Shown piece by piece: positions 1,896 to 7,413 of a stretch of DNA of 26,983 nt. Source of the stretch: Chthoniobacteraceae bacterium (GTDB taxonomy: Bacteria; Verrucomicrobiota; Verrucomicrobiia; Chthoniobacterales; Chthoniobacteraceae); NCBI GenBank assembly GCA_031409655.1, contig JANNXQ010000280.1, positions 1 through 26,983 on the forward strand. The letters are read 5' to 3'. The stretch's first letter is position 1; every line of letters begins with the position of its first letter. The notes beneath the pieces are model-generated. The model saw nothing but the letters and a program-made list of their open reading frames with translations, had not been told where the DNA came from and made no database searches. The translations under genes were made by a program, and so were the position numbers.

Positions 1896-3443
1896 TCACG
1901 AACCCGGCAGCACGCGCACGTCGAAGACGCCGGTGAGGACGCGGCCTTCGTGGCGGATCTGGACCCAGACGCGGTATTCGCCAGGGCGGGGAAAGGCGTA
2001 GGGGAAGGTGACTTCAGCGCCGGGCGGGGCGGGTGGTGACGGGCCTTCATTGGGCGGGCGGTCGCGGTTTGCGAGGAGTTCCTGGGCGGCCATCGAGACG
2101 GTGCCGACGGGATGCAGGTGGGTGAAGACGGTGCCATCGGTGCGGCGCACCACGGCGTGTCCGGTCATACCCATGTAGGGTTGCAAAGTGGCGCGGTGGC
2201 CGGTGGCGGCGAAGACGGAGAAACGCAGGGAGGTTTCGCGATCGGCGACGAGACCGCCCGCATTTTCAAAGACCATCTGCAGGTCGCCGGGGAGCGGGCT
2301 GACGAGCGTGCGCGTGTCGGCAGGGACGGCGGGCGTGGGCGCGAGGTGCCAGGAATCGTCGGCGTCGAGGGCGTAGGGTTGGGCAGCGTTGCCGAGCGGG
2401 ACGGTGGGCGCGCGGCACCAGACTTCGTTGACCATTTTCCAATCGGCCATCGGCGGTAGCGCAGGACCAGCGGGCTCGGGCAGGGCGAGGCGCGCGGTGA
2501 GGGTCTGGGAGAGGCCGTTCTCCTGGGTGACTTCGGCGTAGAGCCGGTAGTCGCCGGCCGGGAGTGGGGGCAGGACGTTTTCAAAAGTGCGGCCATCGCG
2601 GCGCACCGGATGCAGATGGGCAAAGGCCACGCCGTCCGGCTCGCGGACGAGGAAGAGGTGCATGAGCTTGCCGTGATCGGCGACAAGCGTGTCCCAGTTG
2701 GCGTCGGGCGATTCATCGGTGCCGGGGGTGAGCCGGAGGAGGCGCAGGGTGCCGGCGGTGCGGATCTCGGCGGCGACTGGCAAGGGGCGGGCGAGGGCAT
2801 TGTTCCGGAAGTCGCGGTCCATCGCCCGCCAGCGCGCGGTGCCGGCGGCGAGGGCGGCGGCGAGCACGAGTGTGGCGAACAGAGCGGCGCGGCGGCCGCG
2901 TGCGTGATCGCGCGGCGAGGGAACGGCGCCGGGAGGCAGGGTGCTTTCGCGAGCGGCCGTGCCGACGATCCACACGGCACTGCTGAAGAGCGCGACGCCA
3001 AAGACCGCGAGCAAGGCGCCGAGCGCTGGCGGCATCGTAGGGCGCTGGGTGGCCGCGGAGTTCAGCGGGATGGAGACGGCGCCGGCGCCGCGGGGACTCG
3101 CGATCGTGACCCGCACGCGATACGAGCCGCGAGTGAGGAGCCAGAGCGGGGCGTGAAAGAGCCCGGCCTCGCCCGCGACCCGCGCTGCTGGCAAAGGCGC
3201 GGCGGCAGCGGAGTCGCCGGCTTCCCACGGCGCGGCCTGGATCGTCACGGCGTCCGCACCTTCACCCGCCACGCGCACATCCACCTGCGCGACGCCCGGC
3301 AAGGTCGCAGGCGGGCGAATGACGACGCGCACCGCGTGTGGTCCGGCCTGGCCCTCAAAAAAAACGTTCGGACTGCCGACGTGGGCGCGCGCGGCGAGCG
3401 GCAGCAGGAGCAGGGCGACGGCGGTGAGGAGCAGCGTCTTCAT
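1896..3443 (-). CDS. Secreted/membrane-anchored His-rich putative copper-binding protein (515 aa)
   Basis: C-terminal part of the 1073-aa track ORF. ATG at 3443 gives signal peptide MKTLLLTAVALLLLPLAARA then HVGSPNVFFEG, a beta-rich domain, two hydrophobic helices, and two related modules DHGKLMHLFLV...FAHLHP and LQPYMGMTGHAVV...FTHLHP. The start overlaps the upstream stop (ATGA). Confidence 0.8.
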   Translation of the reverse strand: MKTLLLTAVALLLLPLAARAHVGSPNVFFEGQAGPHAVRVVIRPPATLPGVAQVDVRVAGEGADAVTIQAAPWEAGDSAAAAPLPAARVAGEAGLFHAPLWLLTRGSYRVRVTIASPRGAGAVSIPLNSAATQRPTMPPALGALLAVFGVALFSSAVWIVGTAARESTLPPGAVPSPRDHARGRRAALFATLVLAAALAAGTARWRAMDRDFRNNALARPLPVAAEIRTAGTLRLLRLTPGTDESPDANWDTLVADHGKLMHLFLVREPDGVAFAHLHPVRRDGRTFENVLPPLPAGDYRLYAEVTQENGLSQTLTARLALPEPAGPALPPMADWKMVNEVWCRAPTVPLGNAAQPYALDADDSWHLAPTPAVPADTRTLVSPLPGDLQMVFENAGGLVADRETSLRFSVFAATGHRATLQPYMGMTGHAVVRRTDGTVFTHLHPVGTVSMAAQELLANRDRPPNEGPSPPAPPGAEVTFPYAFPRPGEYRVWVQIRHEGRVLTGVFDVRVLPGS

Positions 3444-4561
3444 CGGCGCACGCGCTGGAGCCAGGCGCCAAGCCAGAGCCCGAGCCGCGCGGAGACGATC
3501 GCGAGCCCGGCAGCAAGGAGCGTATTGCGCAGATTCATCTCGTCCCCTGTGGCCGTCCAGAAGGCCGTCTCCGCGGACGGCGCGAGGCGCTGGAAAAACG
3601 GCCAGTGCTTTCCGCCTCCGGCGAAGAACCAATGGTCCGCCGCGGGCGAGAGGAGGAATCGCGCGAAGGGCCACTGCACCGCGAGGAACACCGCGAAGAA
3701 GGCCAGCCCGGCCTCGATCGCCTGCCCCCAGCCCGGGGCGCGCGTCGCTCCCTTTTTCGGGAAGACCCGGAGCAGTGCATCGAGGGCGAGAGCCGGGGCG
3801 ACGAGGAGCAGCGGAAAGGGCGGTGGCAAAAGGTAGTCGCGCGGATGATAAATGGGCGCGACCTGCGGCGAGCCGGGCACAAGCGGCAGCAGCCAGACCA
3901 TCGCCGCCACGAGTAGCATCCCGGCGAGCGCACCCGGGGTGGCCGTCCAGCGTCCACGGCCCGCGAGCGCCAGCGCCACGAGCACCACGGGATACGCCCC
4001 GCAGGCGATCTGATAGAAGGTGGCGGAGTGCTGGCGATTGGCGAAATTCCCGGCCAACGTGAAGAGGAACGTGAGCGCCAGCACCACCCCTCCGGACGCT
4101 GCGAATCCCGCCCGGAGCCCCGTCCCGCTGACCCATGCTCCGAAGGTGATGGCCAGAAAAGCCGCTGCCTTCAGCAATTGCGGCGGGTGCCAGATGCCGG
4201 CGGCGAGCCCGTAGCTGGCCTGCCACCAGCGATCGAAAAGAAACGCCGCGCCGAAAGCGCAAGCCCCCCACAGCACCACCCGCGCGCCCAGCGTCCCGCC
4301 AGCACTCGCGTTTCCCGGCAGAAAGAGGACCCCCAACGCCGCGCCCGCCGCCAGCGCGACCGCGAGGTAAGTGGCGACATGCGGCGGTGACCCCACGAGA
4401 TCGATCCCGATGGTCGATTCCCAAGAAAAATCCCAGAGCAAGCTCAGCGGCAGGCCCGCCGCCGCAAGCAGTAACAGCCAGCGGGCGCCGGTCGGCAGGG
4501 GCCGGAAACCGGGGGCCGACGCGACAGCGTCTTCTCGGTCGGATTGGGGAAAAAGGCTCAT
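3440..4561 (-). CDS. Polytopic membrane protein (373 aa) with two D-x-x-W-x...PP(H/Q) motifs spaced like the PmoC/AmoC metal sites
   Basis: Many hydrophobic segments; motifs WDFSWESTIGIDLVGSPPH and FDRWWQASYGLAAGIWHPPQ; ATGA overlap with the downstream gene. Confidence 0.8.
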   Translation of the reverse strand: MSLFPQSDREDAVASAPGFRPLPTGARWLLLLAAAGLPLSLLWDFSWESTIGIDLVGSPPHVATYLAVALAAGAALGVLFLPGNASAGGTLGARVVLWGACAFGAAFLFDRWWQASYGLAAGIWHPPQLLKAAAFLAITFGAWVSGTGLRAGFAASGGVVLALTFLFTLAGNFANRQHSATFYQIACGAYPVVLVALALAGRGRWTATPGALAGMLLVAAMVWLLPLVPGSPQVAPIYHPRDYLLPPPFPLLLVAPALALDALLRVFPKKGATRAPGWGQAIEAGLAFFAVFLAVQWPFARFLLSPAADHWFFAGGGKHWPFFQRLAPSAETAFWTATGDEMNLRNTLLAAGLAIVSARLGLWLGAWLQRVRR

Positions 4562-4651
4562 CCAAAACGACGCTTACACGATGCGCCCCGGCACCGCGAG
4601 CGCCGCGCCTGGAGGCCCACGGTAATATTTTCATCCGACCCGTGTTTTGTC

Positions 4652-4680
4652 TTGCCGCCAGTGCGCCGAGTAAATAGAAA
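4652..4680 (+). promoter_or_regulatory. Possible sigma70-type promoter for the PEP-CTERM gene
   Basis: TTGCCG-N17-TAGAAA in the AT-richer divergent intergenic region, 23 nt before the ATG. The -10 element is imperfect. Confidence 0.3.
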
Positions 4681-4703
4681 CCATAAGAAATTCTTTCTTC
4701 CCC

Positions 4704-5429
4704 ATGAAACTCCGACTCCTCTCTTCGATCGCCCTCACGTCCGGCTTCCTCTCGGTCGCTTCGCAAGCCGCCTTTCACGTCATGCAGATCGAGCAGGTGC
4801 TCGGATCGGTGAATGGAAATACCAATGTGCAGGCCATTCAGTTGCGCATGCGTTCCGCCGGGCAAGGCGTCATCGGCAACGGTCGCCTGGTGGCCTACGA
4901 CGCCAATGGACTCAACCCCGTAATCTTGCTTGATCCGACGACGAGCGTCGGCATCAACACGGCTGGGTCCAATGTTCTTTTCACCTCCGCAGCCTTCGAT
5001 TCGTTGATGGGTTCGGTGCCCGGCTATGCGAAGGATTTCACCCTCGCCAACACCATCCCTGCCTCCTACTTCTCGGGCGGGAAAGTCACTTGGGAAAGCA
5101 ATGCGGGCATTATCCAATGGGCAACGGCTTTCGGCGCTTACCTCGGGACGAATACTGGCTTGGCCTCCAATACCGTCGGCGCTACGGGCAACTTCGGCGC
5201 ACCGTTTGCGGGCAACTTGCCGACTCTCGGGACGCAGGCGATTCGCTTCACTGGCGCCGCCTCGGCCGCGAGCACCGCGAACTCCTCGGACTACGCCTTC
5301 AGTTCTCCAGCCACGGTGCGCAATAACGCTGGCGCTTCATTTGCCGTCGTCCCCGAACCGGGCACGGCTGCGCTGCTTGTGACCTTCGGTCTCGGCGCCA
5401 TCGCCATCGCCCGCCGCCGCTCGCGGTAA
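4704..5429 (+). CDS. PEP-CTERM sorting-domain surface protein (241 aa)
   Basis: Signal peptide; Ser/Thr/Gly/Ala/Asn-rich body; C-terminal VPEPGT, hydrophobic helix and RRRSR basic tail (exosortase target). Confidence 0.95.
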   Translation: MKLRLLSSIALTSGFLSVASQAAFHVMQIEQVLGSVNGNTNVQAIQLRMRSAGQGVIGNGRLVAYDANGLNPVILLDPTTSVGINTAGSNVLFTSAAFDSLMGSVPGYAKDFTLANTIPASYFSGGKVTWESNAGIIQWATAFGAYLGTNTGLASNTVGATGNFGAPFAGNLPTLGTQAIRFTGAASAASTANSSDYAFSSPATVRNNAGASFAVVPEPGTAALLVTFGLGAIAIARRRSR

Positions 5430-5433
5430 GGGG

Positions 5434-6300
5434 TCAGGGTCGGGCCGGGATGGCCCGTTGCAGTTCGGCGGCCAGTTCGTCCGCGGCCCATTGGTTGCCG
5501 GAGAAGATTCTTCGCACCGTGCCGTCGGGAGAGATCACGGCGGTCCGCAGATTGTGATTCCACTCCGCGCCCTCGCGGAAGACCGCCAGCCCGAAGAACC
5601 CGCTCAGCTTCGCAATCTCCGCTGGCTCGCCTGTCACGAAACGCCACCGCGTCGGATCAGCGGTCTGGCGCCGCGCATATTCCCCGAGCCGCTCTGGCGT
5701 GTCGTGCTCCGGGTCGATGGTGACGGAGAGCAGTTGGCAGCCATCCTTCGCGCCCGCCGCCGCGAGTAACCGCTGCACCTCGGCGAACCGCGCGCTGAGC
5801 AGCGGGCAATAATCCGGCAACGGACAGCGCGTGTAGATGAAAGTGATCGCCAAGGCGCGTCCCTGGAAATCTCCGAGCCGCAGCGCGCGCCCGTCCTCAT
5901 CCACGAGGGCGACATCCGGCACGGACGCATCCGGCGCCAGCCGCGGCTCGGCCACTTTTGGGGTAGGAAGCTCCACGTGTCCGGTCTTCCGCACCTGATC
6001 GATCCAGCTCTCCGTCTCCGTCACCGAGAGGCGGAAGGCGAGCTGATCGCCCGGCACCAGGCCCGCGAGATCTTTCGCCTCCCTGGCCCGGAGTTCCATG
6101 GTCATCGCGTCCATGTACCCGGGGATCGTCTCGTGCGCGATCACCGCCCGGCGGCCATCTGGCAGCGTCTCCTGAAGCACCCCGCGCACTTCAAAGGTGG
6201 TGAGTTCCGGAACCGTCCTGGCGTCTTTCCGATCCGGGTCGCAGCCAGCCAGGACGAACACGCACAGGAGGAAAGTGAGGGGGAGAAAGTACCGTCGCAT
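5434..6300 (-). CDS. SCO1/SenC-family lipoprotein with N-terminal CusF-like copper-binding domain (288 aa)
   Basis: ATG at 6300; lipobox LAGC; CusF-like HETIPGYMDAMTM; SCO thioredoxin-fold TFIYTRCPLPDYCP, SVTIDPEHDTPERL and distal His in WNHNLRT. Confidence 0.92.
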   Translation of the reverse strand: MRRYFLPLTFLLCVFVLAGCDPDRKDARTVPELTTFEVRGVLQETLPDGRRAVIAHETIPGYMDAMTMELRAREAKDLAGLVPGDQLAFRLSVTETESWIDQVRKTGHVELPTPKVAEPRLAPDASVPDVALVDEDGRALRLGDFQGRALAITFIYTRCPLPDYCPLLSARFAEVQRLLAAAGAKDGCQLLSVTIDPEHDTPERLGEYARRQTADPTRWRFVTGEPAEIAKLSGFFGLAVFREGAEWNHNLRTAVISPDGTVRRIFSGNQWAADELAAELQRAIPARP

Positions 6301-7336: not shown

Positions 7337-7413
7337 ATCTCAGATTTCAGATTGAAACGAGCCGCGCGCGCGTTCCCCCAATCTGAAATCTGAAATCTAC
7401 AATCTGAAATCCC
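7320..7413. repeat. Inverted pair of heptamer tandem arrays (GATTTCA)n...(TGAAATC)n forming a long hairpin
   Basis: Arms 7320-7354 and 7379-7413 (35 nt each, 3 mismatches), 24-nt spacer. Confidence 0.95.

Follow-up and report, generated by a model that had tools for sequence, protein, structure and literature searches.

The four-gene locus

The window analyzed here is contig JANNXQ010000280.1 of a Chthoniobacteraceae bacterium (assembly GCA_031409655.1), a 27-kb stretch of 26,983 nucleotides that is part of a 6.85-Mb genome. It carries a module of four genes encoding a membrane subunit (M), a partner protein (B), an exported protein (xFH) with a predicted x-Phe-His N-terminus, and a CusF-SCO fusion lipoprotein. 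The original prediction had regarded this locus as a cryptic copper membrane monooxygenase-like enzyme or a copper uptake/loading module. Its features are as follows:

3440..4561, minus strand: membrane subunit M (P0002, 373 aa), about 10 transmembrane (TM) helices, combining a four-helix core of PmoC type with a PmoA-like half in one chain
3443..4120, minus strand: C-terminal half of M, PmoA-like, covering approximately residues 148-373
4379..4432, minus strand: altered CuC-equivalent site of M, D44-x3-E48-x12-H61, from the homologue alignment
4178..4234, minus strand: altered CuD-equivalent site of M, D110-x3-Q114-x10-H125-x2-Q128, aligned to the second PmoC motif in the profile-profile alignment
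1896..3443, minus strand: partner B (P0001, 515 aa) with signal peptide, predicted mature chain beginning with His, immunoglobulin (Ig)-like domains, two TM helices
2346..2450, minus strand: clade-specific inserted loop of B (Cys343, His366), from conservation; model confidence is low at residues 332-356
4704..5429, plus strand: exported protein xFH (P0004, 241 aa), signal peptide, unnamed domain, PEP-CTERM tail (TIGR02595 over cut-off)
4770..4778, plus strand: Ala-Phe-His, predicted mature N-terminus of xFH, His at position 3, spacing of the amino-terminal Cu(II)- and Ni(II)-binding (ATCUN) type
5434..6300, minus strand: CusF-SCO fusion lipoprotein (P0003, 288 aa), Pfam PF11604 and PF02630
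1563-1886, plus strand: cutA, convergent with B

The open reading frames of M and B overlap via ATGA, as originally described. The CusF-SCO gene had been placed upstream on the same strand; the strand is correct, but the gene is not directly upstream, as the previously unlisted xFH gene lies between the CusF-SCO and M genes, opposite in strand to both and divergent from M with 142 bp between them. The assignment of P0003 as a CusF-SCO lipoprotein was borne out, since both domains scored past the Pfam cut-off (PF11604, E value 1e-9; PF02630, E value 1e-19), and the protein contains a Cys pair with the spacing C-x5-C and a distal His as well as the CusF His/Met cluster. It thus shares its domains with Sco/SenC and CusF proteins, but has them fused in a single lipoprotein.

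Membrane protein M and its altered ligand sites

Taken alone, M and B had no match among Pfam and NCBIfam families or PDB sequences. The predicted model of M (pLDDT 93.7, pTM 0.92) found PmoA/AmoA chains as best matches in a structure search. The statement of the original prediction that no pmoA-like gene is visible therefore has to be revised: the PmoA/AmoA-like subunit is present, fused within the M chain. When the PDB was searched with family profiles, PmoC/AmoC came first, as 7 of 8 matches (best E value 2.7e-5) and as 4 of 4 matches. In profile-profile alignment (hhalign) the M family scored 44.1 against PmoC, compared with at most 19.5 for shuffles. A profile built from the variant sequences described below reached 19.6, i.e., the noise level, which indicates that the link between M and PmoC runs via His-intact relatives. 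As judged from sequence, the kinship with copper membrane monooxygenases that had been proposed for M is real at the family level. A profile search of the window genome gave no AMO or AmoC match.

The closest known scaffold is that of particulate methane monooxygenase (pMMO; PmoCAB) and ammonia monooxygenase (AMO; AmoCAB), represented by PF04896 (AmoC), PF02461 (AMO), and PDB entries 9leg, 9cl6, 7s4l, and 7s4h. The system shares with these enzymes the PmoC-type first motif and the spacing of both sites (at the family level), the PmoA-like fold, the C-A-B order, and a two-helix partner with a His at the mature N-terminus. Unlike in pMMO/AMO, C and A form one chain that scores below all Pfam cut-offs, three of the four CuC/CuD His residues are replaced, and a client-like exported protein and CusF-SCO are attached.

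The PmoC copper-site motifs had been said to recur in M, but a regular-expression search of M for D-x3-H-x12-H and [N/D]-x3-H-x13-H was empty. The residues aligned to the CuC set Asp-x3-His-x12-His are D44/E48/H61, and those aligned to the CuD set Asn-x3-His-x13-His are D110/Q114/Q128, with H125 located three residues before Q128. His-intact relatives have D-H-H at the CuC-equivalent and D-H-S/T-H at the CuD-equivalent site. The AMO ligands given in an excerpt of PMC12801151 (Asp134/His138/His151 and Asn205/His209/His223) have the same spacings as the M family. The exchanges are near-invariant in M and its 119 best homologues, which have 52-85% identity: D44 was found in 119, E48 in 118, and H61 in 120 of the 120 sequences, and Q114 in 113, H125 in 119, and Q128 in 120.

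A profile search with the M family yielded 1412 cluster representatives at E values up to 0.001. Among M and the 149 best representatives under 500 aa, many of them fragments, 59 of 150 contained the full His sets at both sites and 7 of 150 the D-E-H/D-Q-H-Q set. As the wider family keeps the PmoC ligand pattern, M is a variant in which three of four His residues were replaced. The column of E48 holds Glu in 49 of 49 variant and His in 56 of 56 His-intact sequences, this column itself having been used to sort the groups. Pocket-side polar positions newly fixed in the variant are E48, H125, K131, N175, and Q177. In a tree built from 86 of 116 aligned sequences, the variant formed a single clade (19 tips, support 0.95) that was sister to a small D-D-H group (P0252, P0253, P0258, P0297, and P0343) and, with midpoint rooting, nested among His-intact members; deep nodes were weak. 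A further ligand variant of the family, D-Q-H, was present in P0318, P0320, P0353, P0363, and P0379. By its residues, M-B lies outside the copper membrane monooxygenases on two ligand sets, yet has their scaffold.

Several more distant sequences were noted. Two actinobacterial plasmid proteins of about 475 aa (L176:5944-7371 and L177:5932-7377) have only the PmoC-like core in common with M and copper-related genes nearby. Proteins with this core were located near a multicopper oxidase and a cupredoxin on a Streptomyces plasmid, near a BlaI/MecI/CopY regulator and a YHS protein on a Mycolicibacterium plasmid, and without copper-related neighbors on a Rubrobacter plasmid. A Chondrinema plasmid contained a full M-B pair without copper neighbors. 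Locus L150 (G424:C9) carries a divergent pmoC-pmoA pair (PF02461, E value 1.7e-55) at a contig end, in a genome whose family differs from the main methanotroph family of its class.

Proteins linked to the variant

Partner B consists of a signal peptide, a His at the predicted mature N-terminus (H21, invariant in 81 of 81 sequences), an Ig-like domain, two TM helices (residues 142-160 and 185-203), and a C-terminal part of two repeated His/Met-rich Ig-like domains (DHGKLMH...HLHP; MGMxGH...HLHP). The PmoB-like topology ascribed to B was thus confirmed with regard to H21, the soluble domain, the two helices, and the further soluble domains, but not with regard to the fold. Comparison with 11 PmoB sequences gave no profile match (best score 15.9, E value 0.49), and the top fold matches of the B model (pLDDT 86.4) were Ig/FnIII proteins with no PmoB chain listed, the 515-aa model having been searched whole, so that single domains may be missed. 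According to an excerpt of PMC13058606, PmoB has two cupredoxin-like domains, whereas the domains of B match Ig-like sandwiches. The CuB site of pMMO/AMO comprises the N-terminal His and a His-x-His in the first domain; the conserved His-x-His pairs of B (276/278 and 442/444), which may meet H21 in space, lie in the later domains. Unrelated carbohydrate-binding and FnIII domains scored no lower (11.1) than CrdA of Helicobacter pylori (PDB 9LL2), CopC (5ICU), and P19/FtrA/Tp34; unlike these proteins, B is a three-domain membrane protein with His motifs of its own. Relatives of its C-terminal domains were seen in Anabaena, following a heavy-metal regulator, an HMA protein, and an RND pump, and in Priestia without such a metal-gene neighborhood.

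Nine His/Asp/Met positions of B are invariant in the variant and His-intact groups alike. The inserted loop contains C343 in 120 of 120 and H366 in 116 of 120 homologues. C343 was present in 44 of 44 variant loci, and 34 of 37 His-intact loci showed an alignment gap at this position.

For gene linkage, 54 variant loci from a genome collection, two of which were edge fragments without the motif region, were compared with 80 His-intact loci from metagenomes, the best 80 of at least 598. B lay at most 400 bp from M in 51/54 variant and 65/80 His-intact loci. The CusF-SCO gene was found in 25/54 variant and 0/80 His-intact loci, so the conserved linkage expected by the original prediction holds for the variant clade and not for its His-intact kin. 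The xFH gene was present in 41/54 variant and 0/80 His-intact loci. When only loci with at least 2 kb on each side were counted, xFH occurred in 28/31 variant versus 0/21 His-intact loci and SCO in 16/31 versus 0/21. Thus, xFH is more tightly linked to variant M than SCO is. The His-intact fused PmoC-PmoA pairs have the same protein families and M-B adjacency, but the ligand swaps in M, the Cys loop in B, xFH, and CusF-SCO occur with the variant only. These differences arise together: in M, three His are lost and new polar residues become fixed, B acquires the Cys loop, and SCO and xFH are added.

The xFH gene was located upstream on the opposite strand in 25 loci, upstream on the same strand in 5, directly after B in 5, and beyond a multiheme cytochrome and an MtrB/PioB porin (MtrAB) in 6/54. 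In these six loci (L021, L027, L033, L036, L040, and L043) the order M-B-multiheme cytochrome-MtrB/PioB porin-xFH runs on a single strand. By record title, 40/54 variant loci belong to Verrucomicrobiota and 8 to Myxococcota, and SCO adjoins M-B in verrucomicrobial loci only. In three loci titled Bifidobacteriaceae (L051, L052, and L054) that contain the module, the xFH gene looks verrucomicrobial, and the titles of these records are possibly wrong. Neither locus set showed a recurring pathway enzyme nearby, and no recurring cytochrome oxidase or Cus pump was seen near the loci. In the His-intact loci L116 and L117, four genes were inserted between M and B, including a GMC oxidoreductase and a C92 amidase-like gene. 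The claim of cutA at the other end of the locus was correct for its position, but the gene is convergent on the plus strand and was found in 0/134 related loci.

Among 60 related genomes, a set that probably overlaps the locus set so that the two counts are not independent, strong M matches occurred in nine (variant in eight, His-intact in two, both in one). xFH was likewise found in nine genomes, seven of them with variant M, and the relative with only His-intact M had no xFH match. The eight best CusF-SCO matches came from the eight variant-M genomes. The presence of both M copies in one genome (G535; L154 and L162) suggests separate jobs for them. Of 300 further genomes sampled evenly from the phylum, none gave a full-length match and one gave a weak partial match, which indicates that the system is patchy. 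In the open-licence papers and bioRxiv preprints searched, the family is undescribed.

His25, the sole His of xFH, is invariant in 32/32 locus proteins and in 53/53 more distant homologues, and a near-invariant aromatic residue adjoins it. Signal-peptide cleavage follows a -3,-1 rule, and a free N-terminal amine with a His at position 3 constitutes an ATCUN site for Cu(II)/Ni(II). The motif is present in 109 of 120 family proteins; for these, cleavage predicted by this simple rule puts the His third in the mature chain in 104 cases and second in 10, and the predicted mature N-terminus of xFH would thus have ATCUN-type spacing. Apart from the tail, the xFH domain matched no named Pfam or NCBIfam family. 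The tails vary between PEP-CTERM, dockerin, FlgD/T9SS-like, and MopE-like repeat, and in 2 of the 60 relatives (L169:1165-3276 and L173:1441-3612) the domain is N-terminal to a glucose/sorbosone dehydrogenase (GSDH) propeller. With PEP-CTERM/exosortase proteins (TIGR02595, PF07589) xFH shares the sorting signal, having a PEP motif, a TM helix, and a basic tail, and the window genome contains six exosortase matches, but the domain itself is unnamed.

The remaining genes of the window are ordinary according to the domain search. Positions 1-1886 and 6356-26893 together hold genes for GTP-PEPCK, CutA, a GT9 heptosyltransferase, a metallophosphoesterase, an ABC-2 transporter, acylphosphatase, MlaDFE, SecDF, ExbBD-TonB, a LOG family protein, and tricorn protease. 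Repeated short AGATTTCAG-like units lie at 7340-7410, between the metallophosphoesterase and heptosyltransferase genes.

Possible functions of the system

In the explanation that we favor, and that we rate as possible rather than probable, the products of the four genes would act together in maturation by charging the xFH N-terminus with copper and would not serve methane or ammonia oxidation. It is based on homology, ligand changes, and gene linkage, from which we infer binding, the identity of the metal, and the direction of its flow. Cu(I) would be bound by CusF-SCO in the periplasm and transferred to B, at its Cys343/His366/Met loop and its His-rich Ig domains, and B would deliver the metal to the pocket of M. 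In this pocket, the predicted metal binding by Asp/Glu/His and Asp/Gln/His/Gln is weaker than at CuC/CuD, and some positions would stay open. The x-Phe-His terminus of xFH, tethered by its C-terminal helix, would enter the pocket, supply the absent His, and depart with the metal, after which exosortase would display xFH at the cell surface. An excerpt of PMC7558416 describes that Sco proteins load cuproproteins such as CuA centers and that CusF obtains Cu(I) from export ATPases; the likely client of SCO would therefore be the Cys loop of B. xFH is most simply seen as the pocket-entering client, because its sole conserved feature is the N-terminal His and it occurs one-to-one with His-depleted M. 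Of the two options in the original prediction, loading fits better than a cryptic monooxygenase.

Several points weigh against this proposal. An N-terminus with His at position 3 should be able to bind Cu(II) by itself, which leaves the need for a membrane machine unexplained, and the xFH cleavage site rests on a simple rule. Variant and His-intact loci come from different collections, patterns, and taxa and contain kin that are not independent, with the variant loci mostly verrucomicrobial (40/54); SCO was found in 0/14 variant loci labeled outside Verrucomicrobiota, though the Cys loop is kept there. Among the 60 relatives, two genomes (75% and 87% complete) had xFH with no M detected, and one (72% complete) had variant M and no xFH. 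A pocket so rich in carboxylates might just as well accommodate Fe, Mn, or Zn. Finally, the His-intact pairs manage without xFH and SCO, which implies a different ancestral function.

The GSDH-propeller fusions and the MtrAB neighborhood in relatives hint at a redox role for xFH. A more far-reaching reading, which we regard as doubtful, is that the client terminus plugs into the re-tuned pocket, gives its His in trans, and is metallated or oxidatively matured to a redox-active surface copper center that is supplied by a dehydrogenase of the GSDH type or by an MtrAB conduit. Copper uptake, in which xFH would scavenge scarce Cu(II) at the surface and B and M would pass the metal inward or to CusF-SCO for other cuproenzymes, appears unlikely as well.

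An alternative that we also consider unlikely is an M-B enzyme, either an oxygenase or an oxidoreductase in the membrane, that acts on a lipid or a small substrate at a switched (Fe/Mn/Zn- or Cu-carboxylate) site, with an electron-transfer copper bound by Cys in B and loaded by SCO, and with xFH as an accessory subunit. The retained C-A-B order and PmoC and PmoA folds, the many newly fixed polar pocket positions (E48, H125, K131, N175, and Q177), and the redox neighbors (MtrAB in 6/54 loci, GSDH fusions of xFH in 2/60 relatives) would agree with such an enzyme. The lone invariant Cys with His/Met in B recalls PmoD, which according to an excerpt of PMC13058606 contributes one Cys per monomer to an interface CuA. 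Gln at both CuD His positions, the lack of a recurring pathway enzyme near either locus set, and export tails of xFH that are variable, unlike those of a fixed subunit, argue against it.

Quite unlikely is a copper-dependent maturase in which M-B would chemically modify x-Phe-His (hydroxylation or cross-link) and build a cofactor in xFH. The one-to-one tie of xFH to the variant, the invariant His beside a near-invariant aromatic residue, and the oxygenase-derived scaffold are compatible with it, but it is the ligands of the catalytic copper of pMMO/AMO that are missing, and the chemistry is conjectural. The cryptic copper membrane monooxygenase with intact CuC/CuD and a PmoB-like subunit is highly improbable: the family-level homology to PmoC and PmoA and the topology and N-terminal His of B speak for it, but it is already contradicted for the ligands by the absence of the His motifs from M, and the domains of B match Ig/FnIII and not PmoB profiles. 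Decay of a His-intact pair, with the SCO and PEP-CTERM genes adjacent only by chance, to which the loss of three His and the patchy distribution might point, is largely refuted by replacements near-invariant across 120 homologues, open frames, and linkage that survives rearrangement and crosses phyla.

The findings touch on the roles of CuC and CuD and on the origin of the pMMO/AMO scaffold. This scaffold here occurs as a single C-A chain in bacteria in which no pmo/amo genes were detected; natural variants exist both with and without the His residues, and the His loss is accompanied by a defined set of new partners. The locus thus offers a small four-gene system in which a possible role of the pMMO/AMO scaffold in copper trafficking can be addressed. 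In addition, it points to an unnamed family of surface proteins that conserve a single His, near the N-terminus, and xFH is the first candidate to be a client or substrate of the unnamed M family as a whole. If its terminus does plug into the pocket, a monooxygenase-derived machine would act on a protein instead of a gas and represent a new class of dedicated cuproprotein maturase, and D-H-H, D-E-H, D-D-H, and D-Q-H would be a natural ligand-swap series for probing CuC and CuD.

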